Part shown: piece by piece, positions 27,729 through 49,338 of the stretch
Layout: every line of letters begins with the position of its first letter
Position numbering within the stretch: position 1 is the first letter of the stretch
Assembly: GCA_963748815.1 (NCBI GenBank)
Contig: CAVVKJ010000017.1
Location: 32,001-96,000 of the forward strand
Origin: an uncultured Gemmatimonadales bacterium
GTDB lineage: Bacteria > Gemmatimonadota > Gemmatimonadetes > Gemmatimonadales > GWC2-71-9
Reading direction: 5' to 3'
DNA: 64,000 nt
Notes under the pieces: generated by a model
The model's database searches: none
What the model saw: the letters and a program-made list of their open reading frames with translations, nothing else
What the model was told of the DNA's origin: nothing
Program-made: the position numbers and the translations under genes

Positions 27729-27751
27729 TCAGTGGGCCTGGGAGGAGTTGA
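27729..27751. repeat. att site: duplicate of the tRNA-Ile 3' end (distal island boundary)
   Basis: TCAGTGGGCCTGGGAGGAGTTGA, identical to 49261-49283. Confidence 0.9.
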
Positions 27752-27953
27752 TCCAAAGGAGATCGACGTTCCACCGAGGGCCTCACGCATGTCAAGGACG
27801 CGGCGAGGGGTAGGGAATCTCGACCTGGTCCGGCGTGATGTCGAACTCCAACCGCGACGGAACCGCGGCTACTCCAACCCCACCCTTCGAAGGCCTGTAC
27901 GTGCCGAGCCAGCCGGTGAGCGGATGCGTATCCACGTTGTCATCGCGCGTGGC

Positions 27954-28808
27954 TCAGTCGAGCACCTGGACACTGGCAGTCTGTTCCGCGAACGCAATCA
28001 CCCGTTCGACCAGGACCGATACCGTCATCGGCCCGATACCGCCCGGCACGGGGGAGAACGCTCCCAGGTGCGCCACCCCGCCGGCGGTGTCCACATCGCC
28101 CCGCCCTCCGGAATTGAAGTAGCCGACATCGATGCAGATCGAGCCGGCGGCGAGCGCCGTCGACGGCACGACGCCAGGATCCGAGGCGGCCACCACCACG
28201 AGTGCCGCCTGTTGCACCCCTTGCAGGAGAGCGGCGTCGTCCGCCGGCAGGATGGGTTGCATCCTGGCGCCTCGACGGGCGAGGGCCTCGCTGAACATCC
28301 TCGTGAAGGGGATGTCGGGACCCACCACCACGCCGGCTCGCCCTCGAATGTCTACGCCATGCCCGTCGAGCAGCTCCAATCCGGCGGATACGGTCAACGG
28401 CGGGAGCCCATCCGGAGCCGCAACGTATTCAGTGATGCGCTCCGCCGTCATGATATCCACGTCGTCCGCCGCCGGGACCAGGTCCGTCAGTGCATCACCG
28501 TCGATTCCGTCCGGAAACGGGAATTCCAGAAACACCGCGTCCACCACCTCGCGGGCGAGAAGCGTCCGCAGCGCATGCTCCGCCTCTGACGACGGCGTTC
28601 CCGCTGGGAGCACCAGCGGCACGACGTCGACTCCGGCAGCAGCGCATGCTCGGAGTTTGCGCGCGACAAATGGTGTGTCGCCCTGCCCGTCCGCAAAGGC
28701 GACCAGCACCAGCCGCGGCCGTCGGCCCAGGCGCTCGGCCACCCGGTGGCCACGCGCGGCGAGCGCGGGGGCACGGGACCGGGCGAGCGCCGATCCGTCC
28801 AGGATCAC
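27954..28808 (-). CDS. Divergent FolD-like protein (methylene-THF dehydrogenase/cyclohydrolase fold)
   Basis: MILDGSALA, FVARK..AC..AG, DDVD, IDVG, SPVPGGIGPMTV; several canonical motifs altered. Confidence 0.75.
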   Translation of the reverse strand: MILDGSALARSRAPALAARGHRVAERLGRRPRLVLVAFADGQGDTPFVARKLRACAAAGVDVVPLVLPAGTPSSEAEHALRTLLAREVVDAVFLEFPFPDGIDGDALTDLVPAADDVDIMTAERITEYVAAPDGLPPLTVSAGLELLDGHGVDIRGRAGVVVGPDIPFTRMFSEALARRGARMQPILPADDAALLQGVQQAALVVVAASDPGVVPSTALAAGSICIDVGYFNSGGRGDVDTAGGVAHLGAFSPVPGGIGPMTVSVLVERVIAFAEQTASVQVLD

Positions 28809-29317
28809 CGACCGAGCCCCCGGATGATCTTGACCGTGGTGATGACCTGACCGGCATGCCGCTGGGCGTGCTGAGCGGCATGCGACAACAGGCCGATCAC
28901 ATCGCTCGGCCGCTGCGCCTTCCCGACCCCACGGAACTCAAGCAACTGTTCAGCTGGCGTCTCGCGCAGCACGGCCAGCGCCGCGTCCACTGCCCTGGTC
29001 ACCGAGGCAAGCAACTCCTTCGCCGACGCCGGCGGCTCTCCCGGGTCCCCCTCCAGCTTGATGGCCCTAACCTGGTCCGGGGTCAGTGGCACACTGCGGG
29101 CGTACGTAACCAGCCGGTCCGTGCTGCCGGCAATGTGACGCAGGTGAAAGCCCACCGCAGCCGCCCCGCTGGGCCGTGCCCAGAGTTCGTCCCCGGTCAG
29201 GTCGGCCGCGGCAGACTCCACATCCCGGCGCGTCTGGATCAGTGCTTGCGCCACCGGCATGAGCAGCGGGGGAATCCCCTCCACCGGTCCGTCGAGCCAG
29301 GCCTCGATTCCGCTCAT
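28805..29317 (-). CDS. DinB/DUF664 family protein
   Basis: VGFHLRHIAGS, H..QH..RH.GQ. Confidence 0.82.
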   Translation of the reverse strand: MSGIEAWLDGPVEGIPPLLMPVAQALIQTRRDVESAAADLTGDELWARPSGAAAVGFHLRHIAGSTDRLVTYARSVPLTPDQVRAIKLEGDPGEPPASAKELLASVTRAVDAALAVLRETPAEQLLEFRGVGKAQRPSDVIGLLSHAAQHAQRHAGQVITTVKIIRGLGR

Positions 29318-29685
29318 GAAGGCTTGGGAGGGTCGCCGGACGCCCCCACCGATGCCACCGTCAGGAGGAAGGTCGCGCCAGAGGCCGAGGCGACGGCATG
29401 CCGTACCCCCGCCCCGAGCGAGAGCAGTTGGCCCGGACCGATCTCGTGGGTGTTACCGGCGGCTGAGAACTGGAGTCGGCCCTGCAGCGGCTGGACCGTG
29501 ATCGGGCCGTCCGCCTGATGCTCGGGAATCTCCGCGCCGGCCGCCACGGTCACCAGCGTCGCGCGAATCAGGCCATTCTTGATCAACGTTCGTGCACGTC
29601 GACCGCCCGGCGGTGGCCCCTCGCCACCTCCCGACAATTCTACGATCACCACATCACCGGAAAGCGGTCGTTCGATCGAAGACAT
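29314..29685 (-). CDS. Cupin domain protein
   Basis: EIPEHQADGPITVQ..GRL; GVRHAV. Confidence 0.8.
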   Translation of the reverse strand: MSSIERPLSGDVVIVELSGGGEGPPPGGRRARTLIKNGLIRATLVTVAAGAEIPEHQADGPITVQPLQGRLQFSAAGNTHEIGPGQLLSLGAGVRHAVASASGATFLLTVASVGASGDPPKPS

Positions 29686-29936
29686 CAGGCCTCCACCGTC
29701 ATTGTCCGCTTCCGTACATGTACCCGCCAGGTTTCCGGTCCGTTGTCGAGGTAGTCGAAGGCGAACGCATCATCACCCCGAGTCGCCTTGAGCGCGTAGT
29801 ACATGCACTTCGGATCGTGGTCCACCGTCAGATCCAGCGTCGCCCCCTCGGCGAGGCCTTCGTACGCCGACATGATTCGCTCGAACCGATCCTTCGGCTC
29901 GACCGGACGAATGTCCAGTTGTACCGTGTCCGTCAT
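29685..29936 (-). CDS. DUF2249 domain protein
   Basis: LDIRPVEPKDRF..DHDPK..YLDNGPETWRV. Confidence 0.85.
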   Translation of the reverse strand: MTDTVQLDIRPVEPKDRFERIMSAYEGLAEGATLDLTVDHDPKCMYYALKATRGDDAFAFDYLDNGPETWRVHVRKRTMTVEA

Positions 29937-30679
29937 TGTTCCGCTCCAATCATGAGAGGTCCTTCCAGCGGTACCAGGGGCGGTGCCTCGCCGCCGGCGC
30001 TTCCACACCCCCACCCTCCGCGGCGCCCCAGCCAATGCTGCCACGCCACGCCGTGGCGGGGCGTGCTGGGCGCCAGGATGACTGTCCCCGTATAGGAGAT
30101 CAGGGCGAGCTGGTGCATCAGGTCGCCGATTCCTGCACCATCCTGCGAGGCGGCCTCGGGCCCCCCGCCGATCAGGCGGATGTGGCCCAGGGCGTTCCCA
30201 AACCGCTCGAGCAGCGGCTCGGCCATGACACCGACCGGACCAAGACGGGGATCGGCCTCCCAGGCCAGCGCCAGCCCCGCATCGTGACAGACGATCCCGT
30301 CCCACACCGCCGAGTCTCCGCGCAGGACGACCGCCACCTGGCCCCTGGCGCCCTTGATCCGCTTGGCGCGCGCCACGCGAGTGGCGAGCAGCACCGGGCC
30401 GGCCAGCAACACGGGGGCGCCGAGTGCTTCGGAGAATCGAGCCAGGCGAGACTCGTCCTCTAACTGGTGAGTACGATACCCCGTCAGCGTGAGTCCCGCC
30501 GCACGCACCGTTTCGGCGGCAGCGGCAACGCTCGCAGGCGCGCTCGTGTCGGCGGCGACGCCATGCGCGTCCCCCTCCCGCAATTCAAGCGCGGCTAGCC
30601 CTCGGCGCTGCGCAAAACGAATCAGGTCATCCAGTGAGGCGTCCGGCGCCGCCTCGGAACTGAGCCCCAGCCGCATCAT
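29933..30679 (-). CDS. Hypothetical protein, xylose-isomerase-like TIM-barrel N-terminus, C-terminal WGCGS
   Basis: MRLGLSS.AAPD.SL..L...A.RRGL.ALELR..DAHG; overlaps its neighbours in the operon. Confidence 0.6.
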   Translation of the reverse strand: MMRLGLSSEAAPDASLDDLIRFAQRRGLAALELREGDAHGVAADTSAPASVAAAAETVRAAGLTLTGYRTHQLEDESRLARFSEALGAPVLLAGPVLLATRVARAKRIKGARGQVAVVLRGDSAVWDGIVCHDAGLALAWEADPRLGPVGVMAEPLLERFGNALGHIRLIGGGPEAASQDGAGIGDLMHQLALISYTGTVILAPSTPRHGVAWQHWLGRRGGWGCGSAGGEAPPLVPLEGPLMIGAEQ

Positions 30680-31547
30680 GCCTCCGTGCGTGAAATCTCC
30701 ACCCGCCACACCGATGGCCCCTGCTCGAGGTACTCCCAGCCGAATTCGCCGGCGTGCTCGTAGTCGAACTGATAGCGCAGCGGCTTCGGGTCGTGGTCGT
30801 TGACCAAAACGAACGACTCCCCAGGCGCCAGCGCGGAAAAGGTGCTGAAGATCGTGGGATGCTTTTCCCGGGTGGAATGACCCGAACGTCCAGGGTGCGT
30901 GCCGTAGCCATCGGTGTACCTCGTGATTGATGTGGCTGGTCCGGCGTGCCCGCCACCCGATGGCGGATGAACACCCGAACCAGGTCGGGAGCCTGCTGAC
31001 GAACCTCGTACGAGAAGCCGCGCTCCTCGAGGAGTGGAAGGAGGAACTGCGGGACCCGGACATTGATCTGCAACAGCGTGCGATCGGGCGGAAGCGTCTC
31101 CAGCGCCGCCAGGGTCAGGACCATCGGCTCCGGCGGCTCCATCTCCCGTACGTCGAGCACGATGACCCCGGGGTCCGGCTCCTCGTTCGGCGGGACGGGC
31201 GCGGCGGGGGTCGAGACGGCGGCAGCCGGTGCCGATGGATAGAACCACACCCGCCAGTCCTCGTCGCCCAGCTGTTCGGTGTAGTGCTCGAAGCCCTGCT
31301 TGCCCATCACCTGGTAGAGGGGCACCGGCTCGAAAATGGCGCGCACCGCCAGGGCGCCGCCTTCGGGAACGCGTTGCCGCGCGGCCATGATGAGGCTGAA
31401 GGGTTCCCGCCCGTTGCGAAGGTCCTCGCGCACATCGAGCTCCACGAGTTTGTCCGGGGCAATCGCATCGAGCGCCTCCGGGCGCGGGGCCGATGGCGCC
31501 GTGGCCGTCGCCGTCGCCTTCATCGAGTCCAGCCGCCTGCGATTCAT
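30676..31547 (-). CDS. DUF2249 protein(s): tandem DUF2249 pair (31547 to ~30950) plus a further DUF2249 (30911-30676, frameshifted)
   Basis: LDVREDLRNGREPF..IM..FEPVPLY; LDVREMEPPEPM..L..L..P.FL; LDVRVIPP/REKHPTIF..NDHDPKPL..GP.VWRV. Confidence 0.8.
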
Positions 31548-31849
31548 CTGTCCTCCTCGTTGATCATCCCCGCATGCCAGCGTGGATCCCAGACCAGGTG
31601 CGGCTCGACGCGCGCAACCTGCGGTACCAGCGAGAGAGCGTCGAGGATGTTTGCGGTGATGAGTTGTTCCATCGGGCAGCCAGGGGTGGTGAGGGTGTAC
31701 GTGACCGTCACGGCGGGCCCGTCGACCTCGAGGTCGTACACCAGCCCCAGGGTGACGATGTCGAGCCCGATTTCAGGATCAATGACGGTGCGGAGCGCGT
31801 CCCACACGAGCCCGTCGAGGGGGGCACCGGGAAAGGCGGCCTGGGTCAT
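31544..31849 (-). CDS. DUF59 / SufT-PaaD-like metal-sulfur cluster assembly factor
   Basis: VIDPEIGLDIVTLGLVY, TLTTPGCPM, LVWDPRW. Confidence 0.9.
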   Translation of the reverse strand: MTQAAFPGAPLDGLVWDALRTVIDPEIGLDIVTLGLVYDLEVDGPAVTVTYTLTTPGCPMEQLITANILDALSLVPQVARVEPHLVWDPRWHAGMINEEDR

Positions 31850-33113
31850 GGGGTTCTCCGTGCCAGCGCAAGCATTTGGGCAGCCTCGACCATGACTCCG
31901 GATGTCCAGAGCAGGGCGCCGGTCCGCGCGATCCCGGCCTGCGCCGCCACCACGCCGACCAGGAGCAGCGCAACGCCGAGCAGGAGCAGGGCGCCGGCCG
32001 CCCCAGCCAGGCGCGCGGAATAGAGGTCGCTCACCCGTGAGATCTTCCCCTTGCCGGCCAGCGGTCCGAACCGATGATACCAGACGAGGAAGGGGACAAT
32101 CTTGTAGTAGAGCGCCGCAACGAAGAGGCTGATGCCCAGCACCAGGGCCAGGACGTAGGCCAGCGACGCGCGCGGAGACGGGTCGATGAGCAGCGCCACG
32201 GCGGCGAGCACAAGCGCCGCCGCCAGCACACCAAGGGCGAACGCGGCCGATCGCATGCCAGGATCGAGTGCGGGCCGATGCCGATGGCGATAAAATGCCC
32301 GCGCCTGGAGCAGCAGGGCCACGAGGCCGCCACCGAACAGGAGTGTCGGAAGCCAGCGGCTGACGATTGCCGGCCCATGATGCCCCACCGTGAGCGTCGC
32401 GGCGCCGGCGGCCAGCAACCCGACCGCCGCCCTGGCGAAGCGGTCCCCGGCGCCGTGGCTCAGCAGGAACATCGGCAGGAGCCGGTGGGCAACGCCGGCG
32501 ATGACCAGGAGAACCCACCCGAACAGGGCGACGTGCAGGTGGGTGCGGAGCGCGACCGGCCGCTCGACGCCGAGAAAACCCCACTGCCGGTTGCCGGCGA
32601 GCGCCAGGCCCAGGACGAGCGTCACCAACAGGAACAGATCCGCGCCCGGCGAGCGCCCACCAGGTGAGGTCGCGCGCGGTGGCCCGCAGCAGCGTGGCGG
32701 CCAGGTTGATGATGAAGACAAGCAGTCCGGTGCCGAGCGACGCTGCGCCGACCAGCATCAGCGGTGAGATCTGCGAAGATCAGGCCGGCCACGAACACGG
32801 CGACGCCCGGCACGTACAGGGCAAAGGCAACGTGGCCGGCGGGAACCGACTTGATCGGTTCGCCGAGCGCCACGGGAAGGAACTGGTAGAGCGCCCCCAT
32901 GATGGACGTGGTCATCCAGCCCAGGGTAAAGAGATGCGTCACGCCGAGAACCGCAGGGAGCGGAAAGGCGCCGGCGGCCAGGTCAGGCGCGACCCAGATC
33001 AGCCCGACCGCCCCGAGGCCCAGGAACACGATGGCCGCCGTGAAGTGCTCGCCTGGAAGCCGGAACGGCGGGGCCTTGGCGGCGGCCAGGCCCATGGCAG
33101 GGCCGCCCGTCAC
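31846..33113 (-). CDS. Multi-pass His-containing membrane protein (two frameshifts)
   Basis: EHF, THLFTLGW, GALYQFLPV, HLHVALFGW, RLLPMF..SH, YKIVPFLVW.HR; about 12 TM helices. Confidence 0.7.
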
Positions 33114-34195
33114 GAGAGGCCCGCCCAGTCGGCTGTCGCGAGGTGTCGCATCCCGAGGGCCTCGCGCACGCCGCGCGCCAGGTGCCGGAAGCAGGCCGCC
33201 GTGGGCCCGTCGGCCCGCGCCAGCATTGCAGGAGCCCCAGCATCACCATCGATCACGGTGCTCTCCTCGAACGGGACTCGGGCCAGCAACGGACTCCCCG
33301 TCTTCTCGCTGAGCGCGGCGCCGCCGCCCTGTCCGAAGGGGTGCGAGATCCGGCCGCACTCACACACCGCCTCGCTCATGTTCTCCACCACCCCGAGCAC
33401 CGGCACCCCAAGCTTGCGAAACATCTCGACGGCCTTTCCAGCCTCCAGCACCGCCAGGCGCTGCGGCGTCGTCACCACCACCGCCCCGCCCACCTCGATG
33501 GCCTCCGCCAGGGAGAGCGGCACATCGCCGGTTCCTGGCGGGAGATCGACGACGAGGATGTCCAACTCCGGCCAGACCACACCCCGGGCGAATTGCTTGA
33601 CCGCCTTGCCGACCAGCGGGCCGCGCCAGACCGCGGGTGACTTGGCGCCGAGGAAGAAGCCGAACGAGACCACCGGCATCCCGAACGCCTGAAGCGGAAT
33701 GATCTGGTGCTGCTCCGTCATCCGGACGTGGCGAGCGCCATCCTCAATACCCATGAGCACCGGGACCGAGGGGCCGTAGATATCGGCGTCGAGCACGCCG
33801 ACACGAAGGCCCAAGTCCTGGAGCGCCAGCGCCAGGTTGACGGCAACGGTGCTCTTGCCGACGCCGCCCTTCCCCGCGCCGACCGCGATGACATGCCCGA
33901 CGCCAGGCAGGCGGACCCGATCGGCCGCGGGCAGTGCCTGGGTGGAGGCGGCGGGTTCAGGCGTGAGGATCTGGATTTCAGCGCGCACGGCGCCAGCGCG
34001 GGCCAGTCGGTCGCCAATTGCCTCGCGGAGCTGATTCGGCACATCCTCGCGCGCCGTTGAGATCCGGAGGGACACGTGGACTCGGTCGTTGCGAACCGCA
34101 ATCGAGCGCACCAGCCCGAGGGCCACGATATCCCGGTTGAGCCCCGGATAGGGAACCTCCGCCAACGCCGCCCGAACGGCAGCTTCCGTGAGCAT
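33110..34195 (-). CDS. mrp: Mrp/NBP35 (ApbC) Fe-S carrier ATPase with N-terminal DUF59-like domain
   Basis: GKGGVGKST, DADIYGPS, WRGP, DLPPGTGD, ENMS..CECG. Confidence 0.9.
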   Translation of the reverse strand: MLTEAAVRAALAEVPYPGLNRDIVALGLVRSIAVRNDRVHVSLRISTAREDVPNQLREAIGDRLARAGAVRAEIQILTPEPAASTQALPAADRVRLPGVGHVIAVGAGKGGVGKSTVAVNLALALQDLGLRVGVLDADIYGPSVPVLMGIEDGARHVRMTEQHQIIPLQAFGMPVVSFGFFLGAKSPAVWRGPLVGKAVKQFARGVVWPELDILVVDLPPGTGDVPLSLAEAIEVGGAVVVTTPQRLAVLEAGKAVEMFRKLGVPVLGVVENMSEAVCECGRISHPFGQGGGAALSEKTGSPLLARVPFEESTVIDGDAGAPAMLARADGPTAACFRHLARGVREALGMRHLATADWAGLS

Positions 34196-34822
34196 TACGC
34201 CTCCATCCGGTATGCGCAGGAGGTGTCTCGCCGGCATGTAGCTCACCCGGGTCAGCTCCTCGCCGAGCAGTCTCCTGATGAGCCCGATTTCCGCCACGCA
34301 TGGGATCCGCGTCGAGCGGACCAACTCGCGAATCGGGCAGTGGCATAGGCGGAGGCGTGGTGCGCCGTCGTCCTCCTCGACCACCGCCATGAATCCGAGC
34401 TCCGAAAAGATTCGTGCCACTTCGGCGACTCGCGCCCGGCCCCGGAGGTGACGCACCCGCGCCAGTGCATCGGCCCGGCGTCCGCCGATGCGCCGCTCGA
34501 AGAATTCCCGGAGCACTTCGGCCTGCCCCGACTTGACCAGGTGCGCCGCGAGATCCCGGAGGGTTTCTCCCTCTCGACGCGGAAAGAGCGGGTCGGCCTC
34601 CGGCGTGAGGCCGTACACCACCTCCGGGCGGCCGGGACCGCTGCGCTGGGTTCCCTCGCGCCGCACCAGCCCGGCACCGACCAGCGACTTCAGGTGTCCA
34701 CGGATCGTCTCGATGTTGAGCCCCACTTCGGCCGCCAATTCGGGAATGGTGGCGTGACCCCGACGCTTGAGCAGGTCAAGGATGGATCGCTGGCTTTCAC
34801 CGAGGCCTGGGGCGCTGATCAT
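34195..34822 (-). CDS. SufR-like (COG2345) HTH transcriptional regulator with Cys motif
   Basis: HTH, GPGRP..Y.LT, LCHCPI..IPC. A further Cys (DTSCAY, then TAA) is in a shifted frame, with TAATG overlap into mrp. Confidence 0.78.
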
Positions 34823-35187
34823 CGGCGTCCCACCTGATCGGCCATCATCGTGTCGAGGAACTCCTTCAGGACCACCGCCTGGTTGTGCTCGGTGTCGTGC
34901 GCGGCGTACAGCAGCGTCACGTCGCCGGCCGCAGCGGCCACGAGCAGCGGCGTCAATGCACCAGGGTTGCGCTCCAGCTCATGGGAGTAGCGACGGTGGA
35001 ACTCTCGCCACTTCTCGGGATCATGGCCGAACCACCGGCGGAGCTCGGTGCTTGGAGCCACGTCCTTGAGCCAGGCGTCCAGCTTGAGCGCCGTCTTGCG
35101 GACGCCGCGCGGCCAGAGTCGGTCGACAAGAATGACGCGTGACCCATCGTGGGCGGCGGGCTCGTAGGCGCGTCGGATTCGGATCAT
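34819..35187 (-). CDS. DUF488 (YeaO-like) protein
   Basis: IRRAY, LVDRLWPRGV.K, APSTELRRWFGHDP, HNQAVVL. Confidence 0.9.
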   Translation of the reverse strand: MIRIRRAYEPAAHDGSRVILVDRLWPRGVRKTALKLDAWLKDVAPSTELRRWFGHDPEKWREFHRRYSHELERNPGALTPLLVAAAAGDVTLLYAAHDTEHNQAVVLKEFLDTMMADQVGRR

Positions 35188-35253
35188 CTGTCCTCCCTCC
35201 CTCGATGGGGTATCCAGCCTCCAGTGCCGCGGCGAATGGACTCCCCGAAGGGC

Positions 35254-41439: not shown

Positions 41440-42105
41440 ATGAACGCATATCACGCGAAGCGCGTCGCCCAGGGATCAGCCCTCGTCCCCATTCTCCTTG
41501 CCGCCTTGGCGTTGCCAGCCAGTGCCCAGCAGGCGGCCACCCGCCCATCTACGGTCAGGTATGTGGCGCAACTCTCCGCGCTCAACTCGGCGGCGGCCGG
41601 CGGATCGGCAACCGGCGAGGCCACGTTCACCATCACCGGCGACAGCCTGACCATCACGGTTACCGCGAGCGGGTTGCCGAAGGACATCACTCACTGGCAG
41701 CACTTCCATGGATTCCCCGAGGGGCAGCCCGCCGCGTGCCCGAACGCCTCCTCGGATGTGAACCACGACGGGATCATCGACATTGTCGAGACCGAGCCGG
41801 CGGCAGGGACGACCATGGTGCCCTTGACCGACAACCCGGCCGGCATGGACGTGGCGCACGGCATTTATCCGAAGGCGTCGGCCACCGGAACGTTGCAGTA
41901 CACGCAGACCGTCTCCCTGGCCGAACTGCAGGCCGCGTTCGGCAAGGCGTTCCCAGGCAAGTCGCTGGACCTCGACCGGCGTGTCGTCTTCCTGCACGGG
42001 GTCCCGAGCACCACCGTCCTCCCGGCGACGGTCGCTTCGCTTGGGCCGATCCCCGCGGCGGTCACGCTGCCGATTGCCTGCGGCCGGATTGCCCTGGCCG
42101 AGTAG
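41440..42105 (+). CDS. Exported hypothetical protein (CHRD-like / His-motif)
   Basis: Signal peptide; GEATFTI.GD.LTI; HWQHFHG; LHGV; LPIACG. Confidence 0.6.
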   Translation: MNAYHAKRVAQGSALVPILLAALALPASAQQAATRPSTVRYVAQLSALNSAAAGGSATGEATFTITGDSLTITVTASGLPKDITHWQHFHGFPEGQPAACPNASSDVNHDGIIDIVETEPAAGTTMVPLTDNPAGMDVAHGIYPKASATGTLQYTQTVSLAELQAAFGKAFPGKSLDLDRRVVFLHGVPSTTVLPATVASLGPIPAAVTLPIACGRIALAE

Positions 42106-42130
42106 CGTGCGGGGCCCGCAGGTTGGCATC

Positions 42131-43172
42131 ATGGCAGCAAGGCGACGCATCTTCTCCGGCGTCCAGCCGACCGGTGCTGCCGCACCTGGGCAATTACCTC
42201 GGGGCGATCTCGCTCTGGGTGGCCATGCAGGCGGAGTACGAGGCCGTCTTCTGCATTGCCGACCTGCACGCGCTGACAACGCCCGACACCGTAAACCCCG
42301 CCCACCTCCGAACCGCCGTACGCGATACCGCCGCCATCCTCCTGGCCTCGGGCGTGGACCCCGCACACGCCATCCTCTTCGTGCAGTCCCGCGTGCCGGC
42401 TCACGCCGAGCTGGCGTGGCTCCTCGGCACAGTCACGCCAGTCGGTTGGCTGGAGCGCATGATCCAGTTCAAGACCCGTTCCGCCGAGGGCGACAGCGTG
42501 GGCGCCGGCCTGCTTGCCTATCCGGTGCTCCAGGCCGCGGACATCCTGCTCTATCGGACTGACGTGGTGCCGGTCGGCGAGGACCAGCGCCAGCACATCG
42601 AGCTCACCCGGGACATCGCGCGCCGCTTCCACGGCCTCTTTGGAGAGGTATTCACGCTGCCGGAGGCGCTATACCGGTCCGGCGGGGCCCGGATCATGGG
42701 CCTCGACGACCCCGGCACGAAGATGAGCAAGAGTGCCGGACGGCACCGGGCCCGCCACGCGATCGGGCTGGTTGATTCACCCGACAGCATACGCGATGTG
42801 ATCATGCACGCGGTGACTGATGGAGGGCGGGAGGTTCGGGCCGACGACCTCTCGCCGGGGGTGGCCAACCTGGTGACGATCTACCAGCTGCTGACCAGCC
42901 GTTCCCGCGGGGAGGTGCTGGCCGAGTTCGAAGGAAAGGGCTATGCTATGTTGAAGGCGTCCGTGGCCGAGGCAGTCATCTCGACCCTCGACCCGATTCA
43001 GCAGCGCTATCGCGAGTTGTCCGCCGAGCCGGAAGCCCTCGACGCGATACTCGATTCCGGTGCCGAGCGCGCCCGGCCGCTGGCGGGGGCGACTCTTGAG
43101 CGGGTCAAACGGGCAATGGGACTCGACGCGCCGCCGCCGCCACCCGGCGCCCGGCTGAGCGCCATAGCCTGA
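42131..43172 (+). CDS. trpS: Tryptophan--tRNA ligase (frameshift near N-terminus)
   Basis: IFSGVQPTG/HLGNYLGA, DLHALT, YPVLQAADIL, VGEDQ.QH.E, KMSKS. Confidence 0.9.
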
Positions 43173-43238
43173 AGCGGCCAAGACTTTCCGCGCACGCTCG
43201 TCCAATTTCCACAACCACCTCATCGCGAAGGGATTCCC

Positions 43239-43784
43239 ATGTCCTTTCAAGACAGCATCTGGCTGACCACCCTCGTCGGGATCACGGGGGTCGCCTTGGT
43301 GTTTCTCTACGTGATCAGCCAGTCGGGCCGGCAGGAGGAACCGTCGGCCGTCCAGGCCCGGGCCTACGCGCTTCGGAGGTGGGTCTTCGGTGGGTTGATC
43401 GCCCTGGGCGGTTCGTGGTGCACCGGCGCCAGCTTGCGGCCCTTCCCCATCGCGCCGCAACACACGCTTCAGCCAGCACCGCAGGTCATTCGGGTCGTCG
43501 GGCACCAGTGGGACTGGCAGGTGGATTCCGGTCCGATCCAGGCCGGAATCCCGGTGGCGTTCGAGGTCACCAGCGCCGACGTCAATCACGGCTTCGGGAT
43601 CTACGATGCGGATGGTCACCTGCTGGGCCAGAGCCAGGCCATGCCCGGCGTGACCAACCGGCTGGTGCACACATTCACCCAGCCCGGCAAGTACCGCATC
43701 CTCTGTCTTGAGTACTGCGGTTTGGCCCATCACGGCATGATCCTCGAATTCGACGTCGTCGCCGGCGCGGAGGAACAGTCATGA
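43239..43784 (+). CDS. Heme-copper oxidoreductase subunit II with CuA (NorS-like)
   Basis: GHQWDW, DVNHGF, AMPG, CLEYCGLAHHGM. Confidence 0.88.
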   Translation: MSFQDSIWLTTLVGITGVALVFLYVISQSGRQEEPSAVQARAYALRRWVFGGLIALGGSWCTGASLRPFPIAPQHTLQPAPQVIRVVGHQWDWQVDSGPIQAGIPVAFEVTSADVNHGFGIYDADGHLLGQSQAMPGVTNRLVHTFTQPGKYRILCLEYCGLAHHGMILEFDVVAGAEEQS

Positions 43785-45256
43785 GCGCCCTCCACCCCGG
43801 GAATGAGATCCTGCCTCCGCGCGAACGTGGCGCCCTCACCCTGTACCTGGTAACCACGCTGGCGCTGCTCCTGGTGCTGATGGTGTTCGGGCTCCTGATG
43901 CGCATGGCGCAAGGCACCTGGCTCCATGTTCCACCCACGCTCTTCTATCAGTTGATGACGGCGCACGGCGCGGGAATGGTCGGAACCGTGGCGCTGGGCG
44001 GGAGCGCGGTGATGTGGTACTTCCTCCGCAAATATGTGTCGCTGAGCCTCCCCATCTTCTTGACCAACTACATCCTGTTCATGCTGGGTGCCGTCCTCCT
44101 GCTGGCGGCCACCTTCCTCGGCCACTACGCCGGCGGCTGGACATTCCTCTACCCTCTCCCCGTCAAGTCGATGGGCATCTGGAGCGTCGGGGCCGCCGCC
44201 CTGTTCATGACGGGGTACCTGCTTATCGGCGTGGGCTTCCTGCTCTTCTATCTGGACGCCATGCGCGCGGTCATCCGGGTCTATGGCAACCTGGGCCGCG
44301 CCCTCGGCGTGCAATGGCTCTTCGGCGGCATCATCGACAAGACCCATCCGCCGACCGTGGTCGCCAGCGCCATGGTGATCATCGTCAACTCGCTCGGCAT
44401 CCTGGGCGGGGCCGTCGTCCTGGTCATGAGCCTGCTCAACGCCTACGCGCCCGAGATCGTGCTGAGCGCCCTGTTCGTCAAGAACCTGATCTACTTCTTT
44501 GGGCACGTCTTCATCAACATCAGCATCTACATGGCCGTGATCGCCGTGTACGAGTTGCTCCCCCGCTATACCGGCCGGCCCTGGGGCGTCTCGCGCCCCT
44601 TCCTGTGGGGCTGGGCCGCGAGCACCGTGATGGTGCTGATCGTCTATCCGCACCACCTGTTGATGGACTTTGCCATGCCTCGCTGGGCGGCGGTGTTGGG
44701 CCAGATCATCTCCTACACCAGCGGCCTGCCAGTCTTCACCGTTACCGCGTACGGCGCCCTCACCAACATTTACCGCTCCGGCGTGCGCTGGCGCCTGCCC
44801 GCCATGCTGCTGATCCTCTCGATGTTCGGCTGGGCGGCGGGGATCATCCCCGCCATCATCGACGCCACCATCAGCGTCAACCGGGTCATGCACAACACGC
44901 TCTGGGTCCCCGGCCATTTTCATTTCTATCTGCTGCTCGGCGTGCTGCCCATGCTGCTGGCGTTCATGTACCACCTGATCGGCGGTGAGGCGGACCGCCC
45001 CGACCGAGGGGGGGACCGGTCGGCGTTCGCCCTCTATGTCCTTGGCGGGTTGGCATTCGTCCTGATGTTCCTTGCCGGGGGGCACGCCAGTGTGCCGCGG
45101 CGCTGGGCGGTGCATGAATCCGGGTGGCAGTTCTACGATCAGGTGGCCTCGGTCGCGGCGGCGGTCGTGATCGTGGCAATGCTCTGGTTCACCGTGCGCC
45201 TGTGCCGCGGACTGCTCCACGGGCCGGCCGCATCGGCCCCGTCGCCTGGCAGGTGA
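43781..45256 (+). CDS. Heme-copper superfamily subunit I, probable sNOR-type nitric oxide reductase (NorY-like)
   Basis: TAHG, GWTFLYPL, FFGHVFIN (no cross-link Tyr), PHH, GHFH, PRR. Confidence 0.8.
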   Translation: MSALHPGNEILPPRERGALTLYLVTTLALLLVLMVFGLLMRMAQGTWLHVPPTLFYQLMTAHGAGMVGTVALGGSAVMWYFLRKYVSLSLPIFLTNYILFMLGAVLLLAATFLGHYAGGWTFLYPLPVKSMGIWSVGAAALFMTGYLLIGVGFLLFYLDAMRAVIRVYGNLGRALGVQWLFGGIIDKTHPPTVVASAMVIIVNSLGILGGAVVLVMSLLNAYAPEIVLSALFVKNLIYFFGHVFINISIYMAVIAVYELLPRYTGRPWGVSRPFLWGWAASTVMVLIVYPHHLLMDFAMPRWAAVLGQIISYTSGLPVFTVTAYGALTNIYRSGVRWRLPAMLLILSMFGWAAGIIPAIIDATISVNRVMHNTLWVPGHFHFYLLLGVLPMLLAFMYHLIGGEADRPDRGGDRSAFALYVLGGLAFVLMFLAGGHASVPRRWAVHESGWQFYDQVASVAAAVVIVAMLWFTVRLCRGLLHGPAASAPSPGR

Positions 45257-45873
45257 TGTCGGCCCTGCGCACCGCGGTCCTCAGCGTTGCCCTGCTGGTG
45301 GCGGGAGGGGAAGGGATTGCCATCGCCACCGACGGATTTCGGGCGTTCACGACCGAGACGGCGCGTCGGCTTGCGGTGCGCCGTCGGCCGGTCGGGCTTC
45401 CGGCGGTACCGCTCGAGAATCAATCCGGCGTGGCATTCACCGTGGACGATCTTCGTGGCCGGTGGGTGCTGGTGGATTTCATCTACACTCGCTGCCTGAC
45501 AATGTGTGCGGTGCTCGGCGGCGACTTCTCGCAACTCGAGCGCCAACTGGCGGAGCCGATTGCCCGGGGCAGGCTCCAGCTCCTGAGCGTCAGTTTCGAT
45601 CCGGCGCACGATGCGCCCGCCGACCTGGCCTCCTATCTCACACGGTTCCGGGGCCACGGGCCGGGTTGGGAGGCTGCGCGACCCGTCGCGGAGGAAGGGC
45701 TGAAACAGATCACCACGGCATTCGGAATCACGGTCATTCCGGATCAACTGGGTGGCTATACCCACAATGCGGCGATTCACCTCGTGGACCCCGCCGGCAG
45801 GCTGGTGGATATTTACGACGTGGGCCAAGTGGAGTTGGTCACGCGGTCCGTCCTGGACCGACTCACGCCGTGA
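45256..45873 (+). CDS. senC: SCO/SenC copper chaperone
   Basis: FIYTRCLTMC (CxxxC), SFDP, YTHN..LVD. Confidence 0.85.
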   Translation: MSALRTAVLSVALLVAGGEGIAIATDGFRAFTTETARRLAVRRRPVGLPAVPLENQSGVAFTVDDLRGRWVLVDFIYTRCLTMCAVLGGDFSQLERQLAEPIARGRLQLLSVSFDPAHDAPADLASYLTRFRGHGPGWEAARPVAEEGLKQITTAFGITVIPDQLGGYTHNAAIHLVDPAGRLVDIYDVGQVELVTRSVLDRLTP

Positions 45874-46688
45874 GGATCCCGCGCGGGTCGCATCCGCTCG
45901 GCGGGGGCGCGCTGATTGCGCTGGTGTCGCTCGTGCCGCCGGTTCGTCACGCTCTGGAAGCAAGCATGACGGCGCAAATGCTGGTGCAGATCCCGCTCCT
46001 CATCGGGGCGGGCTGCCTGCTCGCGCCTGTCGTCCCCACCCGTGTGCCGGCCCGCATCCATGCCTGGAATCAGGGCGGCGTTGCCGGGCTGATCCTGGCC
46101 ACCCTCGTCGCCACGTTCTGGATGCTGCCGCGCTCGCTCGATGCCTCCATTTCCCATCCGCTCATGGCGGCGGCAAAGCACCTCTCGGTGCCGCTCCTCA
46201 TCGGCCTGCCCTTTGCCCTGAGCTGGCCGAAGATGGGATTCGTCGTCAGGGGAGTCCTGCTGGCGGAGGTGGTCGCCACCTTTTTCCGTCTGGGCTGGCT
46301 GTACTGGGTGTCGCCCATCCGGCTGTGCAACAATTATGGACTGGATGACCAGCGGCGCCTGGGCGCCTACATGCTGGTCCTGGGTGGCGGGTTGTTGGCC
46401 TGGCTCGGCTGGAAGCTGCTCATGGGGCGCTTCGACTCAGGCGCACCCTCGCCGGGAAGCCTGCCCCCCGCAACGGATCACTGGGAGTGGACCCCCGCCG
46501 AGCTGTCCCCGGAGGCCGCGAGTGCCTACGAGGATGCGCGACTCCGTGGTCTGTGCCATGAGGGAGCACTGGAGGCAGCACTCGGAGCGGCACAACGGCT
46601 GCCTATCCCCACAGCGTCGCATCCGCCACCCGCCCTGTCTCGTCCAGCCGGCGCTCGTGTGCCGTCAGCAAGTCGCTCCGGGAAATGA
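45870..46688 (+). CDS. Membrane protein (CtaG-like / 'orf1' of norSY-senC clusters) with extended C-terminal tail
   Basis: LEASM..QMLVQIPLL, FWMLPR.LD, RLCNNY..DQ. Confidence 0.65.
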   Translation: MRIPRGSHPLGGGALIALVSLVPPVRHALEASMTAQMLVQIPLLIGAGCLLAPVVPTRVPARIHAWNQGGVAGLILATLVATFWMLPRSLDASISHPLMAAAKHLSVPLLIGLPFALSWPKMGFVVRGVLLAEVVATFFRLGWLYWVSPIRLCNNYGLDDQRRLGAYMLVLGGGLLAWLGWKLLMGRFDSGAPSPGSLPPATDHWEWTPAELSPEAASAYEDARLRGLCHEGALEAALGAAQRLPIPTASHPPPALSRPAGARVPSASRSGK

Positions 46689-48393
46689 TGCCGACCACCC
46701 TCCTCGATCCGTCCTCCGCCACCACCGGCAGGCGGCCCACCTTGGCGCGGACCATTCGATCCGCCGCGTCCCGAAGGGATTGGTGTCCCTCGATCACGAT
46801 GGGCGGGTGGAGGATGAGGGCGCGGAGCGGCGTGTCCTCCGCCACCTCGGGATTCTGGATATCCCGTCGAGTCAGGAGGCCCACCAGCCGGTCCTCCCCA
46901 TCGACGATTGGAAATCCCTGGTGGGTTGACGCATTTTCCCCCGACAGCCAGATCCGCGTCGCGGCCACCGTCGCGTCGGCGGGAAGTGTCACCACCGATC
47001 GGGTCGAGTGGTCCCGCACCAGGAGTCGCTCCAGGAAGTCCGCCGAGTATTCGGTGATGACCGGCGTGCCGCGCCGCGCGAGTCGCTCCGTCATGATGGT
47101 GTAGCGCATCGTACGGAGCGAGATCAGGTACGCCCCGGTGCACCCCGCGAGCAGCGGCAGGAGCCCCATCGGCTGGTGCGTCGCCTCGAAGGCGAAGACC
47201 ACTGACGCGAGGAGGGCTCGCGAGGCACCGGTGAACGCCGCGGCCATTCCCACCAGTCCGGCGACCCGGGGATCGATGCCCAGCATCGGGAGGAAGGCGG
47301 CTGCTCCAGCTCCGACCAGCACGCCGGCGCCACCACCGATCGTGAAGAGCGGCGCGAGCGTCCCGCCGGCGGTCCCGCTGCCGAGGGCAATCGACCAGGA
47401 AATCGATTTTGCGATGACGAGGAGGAGCAGTGCCTGCCCGGCCAGGCTGCCGTCCAGCAGGTGCTGGATGTTGTCGTACCCGACACCGAGGGTCCGCGGA
47501 GAGAGGTACCCCATTAGGCCGACCACGATGCCGCCGAGAGCCGGCCACCACATCCAGTGAATCGGGAGCCGCTCAAAGGCGTCCTCAATGCGGTAGAGCC
47601 CCTTGGTAATGACGACGCCAAACCAGCCGATGAGGACGCCGATGACGGTGTAGGCGGCCAGCGCCATCCCCGACGGAGTGGCAATGAACTCCATCGGGAA
47701 GACCGCAGCCGGACCGTGCACGGCGATGCGGAAGCCGGCCGCCGCTGCCGAAGCGAGCGCCACCGGTGCCAGCGATCGCGGCCGGTACTCGAAGAGGAGC
47801 AATTCGACAGCGAGGAGAGTCGCCGAGACCGGGGAGCCGAACACCGCCGACATGCCAGCCGCCGCGCCGGCCGCCAGCAGCGTCTTTCGCTCGTCGGCCG
47901 TGACCCGGAGCGCCTGCCCCACCAGCGACCCGAGGGCACCGCCGGAGGCGATGATCGGACCCTCGGCACCGAAGGGACCTCCGGTGCCGATCGAGATGGC
48001 GCTCCCGATGGGCTTCAGGAGGGTGACACGCGGGGGAACCCGGCTTTCGCCCACCAGCACCCGCTCCATGACCTCGGGAATCCCGTGACCACGGATTGCG
48101 GGGGAGCCCCAGCGCGCCACCACGCCGACCACCAAGCCGCCGAGGACAGGGATCCCGATCACCCAGGGGCCGAGGGTGTTCTCCGCGGGTGACGAGAAGG
48201 CGAGGGACCAGCGCCCGTAGAACGTCAGATTGGTGACGAGTCCGATGAGCGCCATGAGCGCCTCAGCCAGCACCCCGGCGCCAAGGGCAATGACGATGGC
48301 AAGCCCGGAAACGAGGAGCAGGCGTCGATCGGCTAGGGGAGCGAATGCGGGCGCGGAGTGGTGCGGCGCGGCGGCATGGTTTGATTCAGTCAC
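46603..48393 (-). CDS. CLC chloride channel / H+-Cl- antiporter with CBS domains
   Basis: GHGIPE, GAEGP, GGTLAP, GVGY; two C-terminal CBS domains. Confidence 0.9.
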   Translation of the reverse strand: MTESNHAAAPHHSAPAFAPLADRRLLLVSGLAIVIALGAGVLAEALMALIGLVTNLTFYGRWSLAFSSPAENTLGPWVIGIPVLGGLVVGVVARWGSPAIRGHGIPEVMERVLVGESRVPPRVTLLKPIGSAISIGTGGPFGAEGPIIASGGALGSLVGQALRVTADERKTLLAAGAAAGMSAVFGSPVSATLLAVELLLFEYRPRSLAPVALASAAAAGFRIAVHGPAAVFPMEFIATPSGMALAAYTVIGVLIGWFGVVITKGLYRIEDAFERLPIHWMWWPALGGIVVGLMGYLSPRTLGVGYDNIQHLLDGSLAGQALLLLVIAKSISWSIALGSGTAGGTLAPLFTIGGGAGVLVGAGAAAFLPMLGIDPRVAGLVGMAAAFTGASRALLASVVFAFEATHQPMGLLPLLAGCTGAYLISLRTMRYTIMTERLARRGTPVITEYSADFLERLLVRDHSTRSVVTLPADATVAATRIWLSGENASTHQGFPIVDGEDRLVGLLTRRDIQNPEVAEDTPLRALILHPPIVIEGHQSLRDAADRMVRAKVGRLPVVAEDGSRRVVGIISRSDLLTAHERRLDETGRVADATLWG

Positions 48394-48560
48394 GTGGCTC
48401 TACCGGATACAGAAGGTCACTGGCACTCGGGGAGCGGCGGTCCACCGGGAACTCGCCGGGATATCGCTGGCAGACAAGGTAGCAGGATTTGGCTGGTTGC
48501 TGAAGCGATTCGGTGTAACTCGTCCCCAAGTTTGCCCTCGGATGTTAGATTTCGCTTCCT

Positions 48561-48761
48561 ATGGACCGCAGCTCTTACCCCACGCGAAAACGCCGCCTCC
48601 GGGACCCGGAGGACTTTGTCGAACTGGATGCCCTCTCGCCTGCGGCTCGGCTGGCCATGGTATGGCCACTCACAATGCAGGCGTGGGCATTCCACACCGG
48701 GCTCACTCATGAACCCCGACTTTCTCGAGATGTTGTCCGCACTCTCCGAGGCGGGCGCTGA
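48561..48761 (+). CDS. Small hypothetical protein upstream of nucleotidyltransferase
   Basis: LSPAARLAMVWPLT..AW...EPRL.R; overlaps the downstream gene start. Confidence 0.55.
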   Translation: MDRSSYPTRKRRLRDPEDFVELDALSPAARLAMVWPLTMQAWAFHTGLTHEPRLSRDVVRTLRGGR

Positions 48762-49146
48762 GTTTCTGGTCGTCGGGGCCCACGCCTTGGCGGCTCACGG
48801 ACGCCCACGGGCGACGGGGGACCTCGATCTCTGGGTCCGCCCCACCCCGGACAATGCCGATCGGGTCTACGCCGCGCTCCGACGGTTCGGCGCGCCACTC
48901 GATGACCTGCGCGCGGCTGAGTTGACTCGTGCTGACTTGGTGTTCCAGATCGGCGTGGCGCCGGCCCGTATCGACCTGTTGACCAGCATTTCGGGCGTGA
49001 GCTTCGAGGAAGGCTGGGCGTCCCGCATCTCGGTCACGATTGGCACGCTGCAGGTCCCGGTGATCGGACGCGAGTGCCTCATCCAGAACAAGCGGGCGGC
49101 GGGGCGGCCCCGGGACCTTGCAGATATTGCGGAACTAGAGGAATAG
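48709..49146 (+). CDS. Nucleotidyltransferase (DUF6036 / AbiEii-like superfamily)
   Basis: VVGAHA..HG.PRATGDLDLW, RIDLL, L..NKRA.GRP.D.AD. Confidence 0.8.
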   Translation: MNPDFLEMLSALSEAGAEFLVVGAHALAAHGRPRATGDLDLWVRPTPDNADRVYAALRRFGAPLDDLRAAELTRADLVFQIGVAPARIDLLTSISGVSFEEGWASRISVTIGTLQVPVIGRECLIQNKRAAGRPRDLADIAELEE

Positions 49147-49212
49147 CACGGAGCCCAAACAGGCGCCCGTGCGGAACGCGCTCGACTCGAAAATTCGCCT
49201 CAAACGCCAGAC

Positions 49213-49249
49213 AAAAACCCCGCACCAGCACCTAAGCTGTTGCGGGGTC
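49213..49249 (-). terminator. Rho-independent terminator downstream of tRNA-Ile
   Basis: ACCCCGCA.CAGC-loop-GCTG.TGCGGGGT hairpin followed on the minus strand by a T-run. Confidence 0.6.
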
Positions 49250-49264
49250 GATATTTCAGGTCAG

Positions 49265-49338
<74 letters not shown>

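Follow-up and report, generated by a model that had tools for sequence, protein, structure and literature searches.

Genomic islands that lie at tRNA genes and lack an integrase are already known, as are near-identical cassettes shared across species; hence, such an architecture is not surprising on its own. Close examples are the tandems of a cis-mobilisable element (CIME) with an integrative and conjugative element (ICE), for which mobilisation in cis is documented (PMC5704250), the ssrA islands of Dehalococcoides (PMC3146451) and the additive flexible genomic islands of Alteromonas (PMC4898812). Here we describe an island bounded by a displaced tRNA-Ile fragment and the intact tRNA-Ile(GAT) gene of an uncultured Gemmatimonadales bacterium of soil or sludge. 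It lies in a stretch of 64,000 nucleotides (the window), which is positions 32,001 to 96,000 of the forward strand of contig CAVVKJ010000017.1 (assembly GCA_963748815.1). We hold it to be moderately probable that this island is locked in place, still exchanges cargo by homologous recombination and supplies the reduction step for nitric oxide (NO).

The cargo bears on denitrification. Among Gemmatimonadota with denitrification genes, 13% hold nir and nosZ and no nor, and how they handle NO was left open (PMC12569097). Whether such bacteria carry denitrification through from nitrite to nitrogen gas could depend on the island. DUF2249 proteins, which the island also encodes, have been tied to nitrate respiration in Thermus (PMC6282519). 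In Haloferax mediterranei denitrifying conditions induce all four, one of which is a P-loop iron-sulphur (Fe-S) carrier (PMC11218638). No paper on this island was found in the literature on Gemmatimonad NO reductases and sNOR, or on islands, denitrification and horizontal transfer, a search that lay largely outside subscription papers.

The genome that holds the window, G000 (3.16 Mb, 86% complete; contigs C5, C8, C9, C10, C11 and C19 are named below), was compared with 16 congeners. Several of these 17 genomes are incomplete. G046 belongs to a different genus, and G010 and G046 are of different genera. The island was tracked across the genus by its DUF2249 domain. Sites in other genomes are given as genome, contig and position.

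The tRNA-Ile locus and the ends of the island

Positions 27729-27751 and 49261-49283 hold an exact direct repeat of 23 bp. No other exact repeat in the window is as long (the next is 17 bp), and only these two copies occur in the 3.16-Mb genome, even with 4 mismatches allowed. The only tRNA-Ile(GAT) found in the genome is called at 49264-49338 on the minus strand, and 20 of the 23 repeat bases are its 3′ end. The repeat and its overlap with the tRNA are thus as described in the sequence-only reading, an earlier annotation made by a model from the letters; its caveat that the 23-mer might be a common genome-wide repeat falls away. The features at the two ends are listed here.

27124..27600, minus strand: NTF2/SnoaL gene of the chromosomal flank, which adjoins tRNA-Ile in empty genomes
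27683..27715: G+C hairpin, terminator-like (presumed function), on the chromosome side of the displaced tRNA fragment
27729..27796, minus strand: distal attachment (att) site, the displaced 3′ half of tRNA-Ile, with a 21-bp insertion at 27752-27772
27849..27867: AACCGCG tandem repeat, by analogy a presumed integrase arm site
49200..49260: tRNA-proximal arm, with the hairpin kept and the AACCGCG stretch missing
49264..49338, minus strand: intact tRNA-Ile(GAT), the integration target

The Islander approach (PMC4383910) looks for a tRNA gene (tDNA) with a displaced 3′ fragment downstream in the same orientation, an empty target site in relatives and an encoded tyrosine integrase. The first two are present and the third is absent. 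In G001, G009 and G012 (3 of the 16 congeners) the NTF2 gene lies 124-168 bp from an intact tRNA-Ile end; its distance to the distal repeat in the window is 132 bp. These are the NTF2-tRNA junctions that the sequence-only reading had expected of an empty site, and they support its view that the tRNA-Ile island was acquired horizontally. In G002 and G014 the inserts at the locus comprise only two genes. Other congeners carry tandem arrays, and the number of extra tRNA fragments at the locus ranges from 0 to 4 per genome. Units of these arrays include heavy-metal efflux cassettes without an integrase; G003, G004 and G013 also have, next to the tRNA, a unit that encodes a tyrosine integrase. The island itself is present in 9 of the 17 genomes, in which DUF2249 occurs nowhere else. 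G046 has a full copy, in unchanged gene order, flanked on each side by a tRNA-Ile fragment.

Several observations accompany this survey. In G001 (C6, near 246743) the tRNA-Ile has four extra bases at the anticodon-loop crossover point, either a scar or a sequencing error. The integrase-less copper and heavy-metal efflux cassettes (RND, P-type ATPase and CDF; G003:C5:162572-172322, G016:C42:47486-66465, G004:C16:26169-40503 and G013:C8:1110389-1120707) retain the distal arm repeat of the G003/G013 integrase element. The G046 island (C1:17042-39287) lies about 700 kb from the intact tRNA-Ile on the same contig, in the opposite orientation, and adjoins small genes that resemble toxin-antitoxin genes and open reading frames (ORFs) that resemble transposases, as labelled by eye. 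The Rfam search of the window returned tRNA only. An ARAGORN call of tRNA-Lys(ctt) at 49727-49813 is probably false, since it is antisense within typA and has no Rfam match.

Base composition differs little: GC is 0.680 in the island and 0.690 and 0.701 in the flanks. Third-position GC (GC3) is clearly lower in the 19 island gene calls than in the 2543 other calls (0.82 versus 0.89, p=1e-8). That 9 of 17 genomes agree in location and gene order, and that carriers cluster on the typA tree (3 changes against a shuffle mean of 6.0; 17 rows, with G006 left out for its truncated gene and G015 absent), would fit a region ancestral to the genus at this locus, lost in some species and not recently transferred. 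The island may indeed be old in the genus. Conversely, the tRNA fragment with its arm repeats, the lower GC3 and the copy between tRNA fragments in another genus point to an integrative origin. Furthermore, 99.8% identity to another species across a core identity of 81-93% (see below) cannot be vertical, which refutes purely ancestral descent for the central tract unless the assembly is chimeric. We regard this alternative as very improbable.

In relatives the shared att core is about 44 bp long and extends to the anticodon loop, one of the standard tDNA crossover subsites (PMC4383910). The window departs from this. Its distal att site consists of 23 exact bp, the 21-bp insertion, which falls in the T-loop, and then 24 bp with 7 mismatches. 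Three of these lie in the 7-bp anticodon loop, so that 3 of 7 overlap bases are changed. The repeat in the sequence-only reading is real, and the site it belongs to is longer than supposed and damaged. The distal site runs on into the same arm sequence as in G010, G013 and G046. The AACCGCG tandem repeat is the island's own; the distal copy, at 27850 and 27861, is the only one in the genome and sits about 50 bp closer to the core than in G010 and G046. At the tRNA-proximal end, about 46 bp that carry this repeat in G008 and G006 are missing after 49204. A hairpin like that at 27683..27715 precedes every tRNA-Ile end aligned. The integrase-bearing units have short tandem repeats at both ends, GGACACC-type in G003 and G013 and TGGCACC-type in G004, and by analogy we presume that these and the island's repeats are arm sites. 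Given the T-loop insertion, the changed overlap bases and the deletion of the presumed proximal arm sites, the window's copy looks locked rather than mobilisable in trans.

A hairpin-like T-loop insertion of 20-21 bp, the same as that at 27752-27772, is also seen at G004:C16:26169, G013:C8:1120707 and G007:C50:778, with a variant at G008:C2:5069. These are different species and junctions with different arm types, and the insertion was not found elsewhere in G000. It may have spread by recombination between arrays.

No integrase, resolvase or phage family was detected in the island. PF00589 gave 7 matches at 5 loci in the genome, none on the window's contig, and PF00239 gave no match in the genome. 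With 11 queries (tRNA-Ile integrases of relatives, G000 recombinases and one neighbour), tblastn found nothing in 26701-50300 at E<=0.05, and PHROGs matched 0 of 12 unassigned island ORFs. These searches agree with the earlier statement that the interval holds no recognisable integrase, transposase or phage gene. No fetched island copy holds an integrase either, the G010 copy being cut by a contig end. At this locus integrases occur only in the separate tRNA-proximal units of G003, G004 and G013. A tRNA-Ile-targeting tyrosine integrase, for which the sequence-only reading had proposed a search of the genome, did not emerge: the closest G000 relative of the tRNA-Ile integrases is 34-40% identical to them and sits at tRNA-Ala. 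A search of 401 family genomes for the AACCGCG-arm pattern gave 21 matches in 20 genomes, of which 2 were at tRNA-Ile (G006 and G008), both without an integrase. In metagenomes a loose form of the pattern stood at a tRNA-Ile end at 0 of 118 loci among the matches listed, and the tRNA-Ile core had 0 matches in viral contigs. Thus, no cognate integrase with AACCGCG arms was found in family genomes, the metagenome loci listed or viral contigs. Two other tRNA-adjacent integrases are present in G000, at C9:8767-10429 (tRNA-Ala), with a helix-turn-helix or excisionase-like gene upstream, and at C10:641908-643265 (tRNA-Met).

Alternatively, the island could be a working cassette, mobilisable in cis or in trans, which the integrase of a neighbour or an unlinked locus excises and re-integrates whole; this would explain its spread, including the present copy. 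Intact 44-bp cores do exist: G013 has one at each end, and G010 and G046 have one distally. In G003, G004 and G013 the tandem arrays include neighbours that bear an integrase, identity between G010 and G046 starts at the att core, and the CIME-ICE tandems cited above provide a precedent. Against this stand the mutated overlap, T-loop insertion and deleted proximal repeat of the window, and a near-identical tract that ends inside genes some 4 kb and 1 kb from the att sites. Similarly, the nearest G000 integrase is the distant one at tRNA-Ala, and the three tRNA-Ile integrases have arm repeats other than AACCGCG. Mobilisation of the whole island therefore seems unlikely, and with both ends damaged and no cognate integrase found in the genome the earlier suggestion of mobilisation in trans does not hold up here.

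Probable exchange of the central tract between species

A recently shared tract occupies 31686..48264. Compared with G016 it comprises three blocks (1297, 14006 and 429 aligned bases) and two divergent patches (612 bp and 216 bp).

27985-31685, distal to the tract: 75.4% identical
31686-32984, first block: 99.85% identical (2 of 1297 bases differ)
32985-33596, 612-bp patch: 73.5% identical
33597-47619, second block: 99.78% identical (31 of 14006 bases differ)
47620-47835, 216-bp patch: 86.6% identical
47836-48264, third block: 100% identical (0 of 429 bases differ)

The window is also 99.78% identical to G003 over 33597-46575. In the core genome G000 is much further from G016 and G003: 81-88% in the right flank, 82-84% on a C5 stretch, about 90% for typA and 93% at best on a C10 stretch. 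On the typA tree G000 pairs with G008 (100/100 support), apart from G016 and G003. Among 400 family genomes only G016 and G003 hold the tract at this identity; some match to it occurs in 34 of 401 (this count takes in the unpublished G498, and no claim is based on that genome). The breakpoints fall within genes, namely sufT, the membrane gene next to it, mrp and clc, and the tract stops, still within genes, about 4 kb from one att site and 1 kb from the other. Within it, 8 kb (35188-43227) are absent from G006, G008 and G013. Conversely, much of 28000-29750 and 30750-31250, in the distal part of the island, is 91-100% identical to G008 and G006. Taken together, about 15.7 kb at 99.8% identity to two species, against a core identity of 81-93%, with breakpoints within genes, point to recent homologous replacement from another species.

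The following sequence of events would account for these data. Long in the past, a tyrosine integrase would have inserted the island at the anticodon loop of tRNA-Ile; the island would later have lost this presumed integrase and, in G000, the integrity of both att sites, so becoming fixed in place. G000 would have inherited the island frame common to its sister species G008 and G006, and then have received about 16 kb, in several tracts, from a donor resembling G016 or G003. With these tracts would have come the 8-kb block from UDG to TrpS and another allele of sNOR, new to G000. A homologous island occupies the same site in many congeners, so that DNA of other species can recombine into shared genes (sufT, mrp and clc) and would replace or add cargo between them; the island would thus stay a vehicle for gene flow. 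The gene comEC was found in 5 of 5 genomes and the VirB4 family in 0 of 5, which is compatible with uptake by transformation. If this is correct, an island that is locked can still trade 14-16 kb of respiratory cargo across an identity gap of 81-93%, here seen at base resolution, and integrase-based island finders would miss such an island.

The assembly requires care. In the shared tract G016 and G003 agree with each other, and 21 indel events set the window apart from them. Short-read contigs of four sequencing runs from four studies (X1, X2, X4 and X5) cover the block with few differing letters. Among the joints listed none lay at att, in stretches of up to 20 kb that take in one end of the island at a time. 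RNA runs matched only 0.06-0.10 of the sequence words. Among the rows listed, 12 indels are read otherwise by every run covering them (X5 does not cover 30869), although these runs may hold other strains and bear on G000 only indirectly. A cbb3 gene on C10 of G000 is similarly frameshifted. Hence, the 1-3 bp indels that split genes in the window are most likely assembly errors. Pseudogene decay of the cargo was rejected, as G016, G003 and the contigs of the four runs read through these 12 indels; the proposal that the island is decayed suits its att sites and not its cargo.

Some observations count against the exchange proposed here. The window assembly is indel-rich and the genome 86% complete. 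None of the contigs listed runs across the whole stretch, and contig support, of an indirect kind, exists for a single junction. At 33332-33367, inside the 32985-33596 patch, X1 and X4 are of the G016 type and not of the window's. Furthermore, G010 and G046 are 98-100% identical for about 7 kb from exactly the att core and then 76-92% identical; some exchange in the family is therefore att-bounded. X2 and X5 have little cover left of 33500 and cover the block well, a pattern that was not used as evidence.

The lack of a spanning contig and the G016-type letters of X1 and X4, together with the 21 indels and the badly frameshifted cbb3 gene as signs of a low-quality consensus, would also be expected if the mosaic were a chimera of long-read assembly or polishing, with a co-occurring G016-like island spliced into that of G000. 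However, six switch points and patches of 216-612 bp at 74-87% identity are hard to obtain from one mis-join. G010 and G046 show the same kind of mosaic, and the distal part of the window is itself a patchwork of alleles. In addition, an X1 contig spanning 47312-48501 has 29 differences from the window, where a pure G016 type would give 77. Since 29 is the count expected for a G016-type first patch followed by window-type sequence beyond 48265, this contig, which is independent, appears to cross the junction at 48265 as the window has it. We consider a chimera quite improbable.

Cargo of the island and nitrogen oxide respiration

Cargo families were assigned by Pfam and NCBIfam profile searches of the window proteins. 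The genes are given below; 'core' marks the 11 genes present in 9 of 9 islands of the genus.

27954..28808, minus strand: FolD-like protein, below NCBIfam cut-offs; core
28805..29317, minus strand: DinB-superfamily protein; core
29314..29685, minus strand: cupin; core
29685..29936, minus strand: single-DUF2249 protein; core
29933..30676, minus strand: 247-aa protein, no family match; core
30676..31547, minus strand: triple-DUF2249 protein, split by a 1-bp indel at 30869; core
31544..31849, minus strand: SufT/PaaD-like Fe-S assembly protein, mosaic breakpoint at about 31686; core
31846..33113, minus strand: 12-helix membrane protein of heme-copper oxidase (HCO) fold, 421 aa in G016, split here by indels at 32644 and 32773; core
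33110..34195, minus strand: Mrp/ApbC Fe-S carrier, breakpoint at about 33597; core
34196..34822, minus strand: SufR-like regulator, which a 2-bp loss at 34229 joins to Mrp in the window; core
34819..35187, minus strand: DUF488 protein (N3i subclade); core
35276..35299: palindrome TTGTCAAG-N8-CTTGAYAA, probably containing −35 element(s) and an operator (presumed role)
35279..35980, minus strand: UDG-superfamily protein; variable
35977..36327, minus strand: first CMD/AhpD protein; variable
36564..37052, plus strand: hemerythrin-like protein, PF01814 only, no NCBIfam match
37049..37598, plus strand: 182-aa membrane protein, no family match, indel at 37450
37612..38275, minus strand: PAS-LuxR regulator, indel at 37822
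38427..38853, plus strand: TTHB210-like exported protein, indel at 38493
38850..39447, plus strand: cupredoxin, start uncertain, indel at 39345
39448..40876, plus strand: MmgE/PrpD protein, 473 aa and intact in G016 and G003, about 10 indels here
40937..41410, plus strand: second CMD/AhpD protein
41440..42105, plus strand: exported protein, weak CHRD match below cut-off
42131..43172, plus strand: second tryptophanyl-tRNA synthetase (TrpS), 44% identical to the copy on C10, indel at 42177
43239..43784, plus strand: norY, CuA-type subunit II
43781..45256, plus strand: norS, sNOR subunit I (H242, N246, Y250, Y257, E258, T322)
45256..45873, plus strand: senC/SCO copper chaperone
45870..46688, plus strand: orf1, membrane protein of the sNOR operon
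46603..48393, minus strand: CLC-CBS channel or transporter, breakpoints at 47620, 47836 and 48265
48709..49146, plus strand: minimal nucleotidyltransferase (weak AbiEii/DUF6036)

The searches recovered COX1, COX2, SCO, hemerythrin, SufT, Mrp/ApbC, SufR, DUF488, four DUF2249 domains, UDG, two CMD proteins, cupredoxin, PrpD, TrpS and CLC-CBS. The cargo list of the sequence-only reading stands as far as it goes; it lacked the FolD-like, DinB, cupin, PAS-LuxR, CHRD-like and TTHB210-like proteins, the nucleotidyltransferase and the 421-aa HCO-fold protein. The nucleotidyltransferase was not seen in the islands of relatives. A small ORF at 48561 overlaps it (48561-49146), possibly as a toxin-antitoxin-like pair, and a 38% paralogue lies on C19 near 56300. 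A cluster atlas gave no firm family for the 182-aa protein.

The Bacillus azotoformans sNOR is marked by N243 (Asn in place of the cross-linked Tyr), Y247, Y254, E255 and T319 (PMC11214002, Dataset S1). NorS of the window has all five as N246, Y250, Y257, E258 and T322, at the same offsets, which were compared by numbering rather than by alignment to the reference. Among 80 norS relatives, the closest of which are in metagenome-assembled genomes of Gemmatimonadales and Gemmatimonadetes, the first four residues are invariant (80/80) and the Thr is present in 77. Subunit II, senC and orf1 accompany norS in 78, 79 and 77 of the 80 loci, and in the window PF00116 (CuA subunit II) and PF02630 (senC/SCO) are matched. 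Assignments to bNOR (Tyr at N+3), eNOR (Gln) or a B-family O2 reductase (Tyr at the cross-link position) were rejected, as the window has Asn, with Tyr at N+4 and Glu at N+12. By its marker residues, the island oxidase is a probable sNOR, as had been supposed.

The sNOR module was found in 6 of 9 islands, with the G010 copy cut by a contig end. The islands of G006 and G008 add a full norCBQD operon (cNOR) beside sNOR at the tRNA-proximal end (G006:C8:1273-6470 and, in G008, L038:13758-18955). Together with the DUF2249 precedents in Thermus and Haloferax, this gives independent support to the denitrification link drawn in the sequence-only reading. In G000, sNOR is the only NO reductase found, beside one A-type and one cbb3 heme-copper oxidase. 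Across the 17 genomes of the genus, nosZ is found in 15 and a nirK-like gene in 10, at E<1e-20 and in each case under the family cut-off. An eNOR operon occurs in 9 of the 17, so that the idea of the island as holder of the genus's only NO reductase was rejected. The eNOR residues were checked in G013 (Q233, Y244, S306, H309); the G016 translation has the same motif, and the others were assigned by score class. The operon adjoins a ctaA-like gene (L304:6189-9552, L305 and L306) and is absent from the syntenic place in G000 (gap at C5:568670-568794), G003 and G008. Island and eNOR are anti-correlated (2/7/7/1, p=0.015), in a set where kin are not independent and several genomes are incomplete. 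Most likely, judging by gene content, norY-norS-senC-orf1 supplies the step from NO to N2O between chromosomal nirK-like and nosZ genes.

The 421-aa core protein gave an uninformative fold from a single sequence (pLDDT 52), which was replaced by an alignment-based model (98 sequences, including 97 near-full-length matches chosen from 150 listed). This model has 12 helices in the HCO fold (pLDDT 96.1). It matches cbb3 3mk7_A (Z 35.6, rmsd 3.1, 390 aligned) and cNOR 4xyd_A (Z 34.9, rmsd 2.9, 374 aligned); ten HCOs give Z 23.5-35.6, and the next match Z 9.8. The six conserved His ligands of a catalytic HCO are lacking: only H60 and H191 are invariant among the 98 sequences, and no other His reaches 90%. 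Presumably it is akin to non-catalytic HCO homologues such as NnrS, with which it shares the fold; it differs in having two invariant His and no match to NnrS, or to any other Pfam family, at E<=1e-4. The atlas offered no firm family here either (COX1 in 10% of the members of the top cluster). Shorter proteins resembling it are encoded at C8:126616-126921 and C11:68215-69029 of G000, the latter at the edge of the nos cluster.

A palindrome at 35276-35299 precedes the sufR operon. It is present in 9 of 9 genus islands and in G046, occurs once in the genome and was the only conserved regulatory motif found. In G006, G008 and G013 the Fe-S operon and norY diverge from a spacer of about 120 bp that contains it. 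The SufR-Mrp-SufT-DUF2249-HCO-fold operon most likely services Fe-S, heme and Cu cofactors under low-oxygen nitrogen-oxide respiration, as far as its gene families can tell.

Not all of the data favour a role in NO reduction. Activity of sNOR is only proposed for the family (PMC11214002), and the islands of G004 and G011 (2 of 9) carry the core without any NO reductase. Strict FNR/DNR boxes number 0 in the window and 9 in the genome. The nirK-like gene of G000 (C11, outside the window) scores 190 bits against a TIGR02376 cut-off of 296.3. Type 1 and type 2 Cu ligand motifs, which we take to be those of NirK, are present in its translation. Neither sNOR versus eNOR (p=0.33) nor island versus nirK (p=0.15) is significant. 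The NO kit of the sequence-only reading is thus not uniformly coherent, given the two islands without a NO reductase and the missing FNR/DNR box. Nothing was found that ties UDG, PrpD, TrpS, FolD, DinB, CHRD or CLC to NO, which leaves about half of the cargo without support for such a link. A TrpRS II that binds NO synthase is known from Deinococcus. The notion that UDG repairs NO-deaminated cytosine fared badly, as UDG lies by norS in 6 of 80 loci and is absent from 3 of 6 sNOR islands. The curated RIC/YtfE model did not match the hemerythrin-like protein (PF01814 only, 0 NCBIfam families), and PADLOC, for a defence role, matched 0 of 5 proteins.

A different primary function, compatible with the same transfer mechanism, would be the homeostasis of iron, Fe-S and metal cofactors under SufR control, in response to oxidative stress or to stress from low oxygen. 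In that case NO reductases would be optional, and NorSY may be a detoxifier or even an oxidase. The 11-gene SufR/Mrp/SufT/DUF2249 core in all islands, with sNOR in 6 of 9, is in keeping with this, as are the sole conserved motif before the sufR operon and the rarity of core genes near norS outside the group (Mrp 6, SufT 5 and UDG 6 of 80 loci). Conversely, sister islands add norCBQD, norY shares the divergent spacer with the core operon in three genomes, and the four Haloferax mediterranei DUF2249 proteins respond to denitrification (PMC11218638). We view this function as possible, if doubtful.

For a locked, still exchanging island that supplies NO reduction, the consequences reach beyond G000. 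Because the missing NO step would lie on a patchy and recently exchanged island, the denitrifier class of species in this group may change by one recombination event. Near-identical sNOR alleles in hosts with and without eNOR or cNOR form a natural test set. A more speculative idea, to which we give little weight, is that NO reduction is a plug-in trait. Here nosZ would be core, and sNOR, at times with cNOR, would ride an integrase-free tRNA-Ile docking island, swapped across species and genera by homologous recombination, preferentially where eNOR was lost. The invariant core (two-His HCO-fold protein, DUF2249, SufR/Mrp/SufT) would be a module dedicated to NO sensing and cofactor repair. The T-loop insertion of 21 bp, which recurs, would be a device that spreads and holds the members of arrays locked in place.

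Comparison with described systems

The sNOR operon resembles the described norSY-senC-orf1 family (PMC11214002, PMC4964001) in its five markers, CuA subunit II, senC and orf1. It differs in lying on an exchangeable Gemmatimonadales island and in having subunit II before subunit I. In the Thermus DrpAB and Haloferax DUF2249 clusters (PMC6282519, PMC11218638), proteins with one or several DUF2249 domains likewise stand close to genes for nitrogen-oxide respiration, together with a P-loop Fe-S carrier, a cupredoxin and SCO. Unlike these, the island has no nar operon and no DUF1858, and it has a SufR-like regulator and the extra 12-helix HCO-fold protein.

Like a CIME (PMC5704250), the island has lost integration and transfer genes, has att-derived bounds and stands in tandem with integrase-bearing elements in relatives (G003, G004 and G013). 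However, a CIME has intact attL and attR. In G000 the att sites are damaged, with cores intact in the G013 copy; no tandem partner is present in G000, and the visible recent exchange is internal. As intact att sites are lacking in the window, we do not file the island as a CIME proper. The Alteromonas additive islands (PMC4898812) share with this locus a tRNA hotspot at which species differ in their number of repeat-bounded cassettes, cassette DNA that is nearly identical between species, and heavy-metal efflux cassettes as neighbours. They differ in that the identity tract here ends inside homologous genes and not at cassette ends, as is expected of replacement within a cassette.

The ssrA islands of Dehalococcoides (PMC3146451) also form tandems at one tDNA and carry respiratory cargo; 15 of them have no integration module, and module swapping by homologous recombination has been proposed. 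Here the target is tRNA-Ile, the cargo is a NO reductase with Fe-S genes, and exchange has crossed species (81-93% core identity) and genera. These arrays are the nearest overall precedent, and the island is best compared to a decayed CIME in an additive tRNA hotspot.

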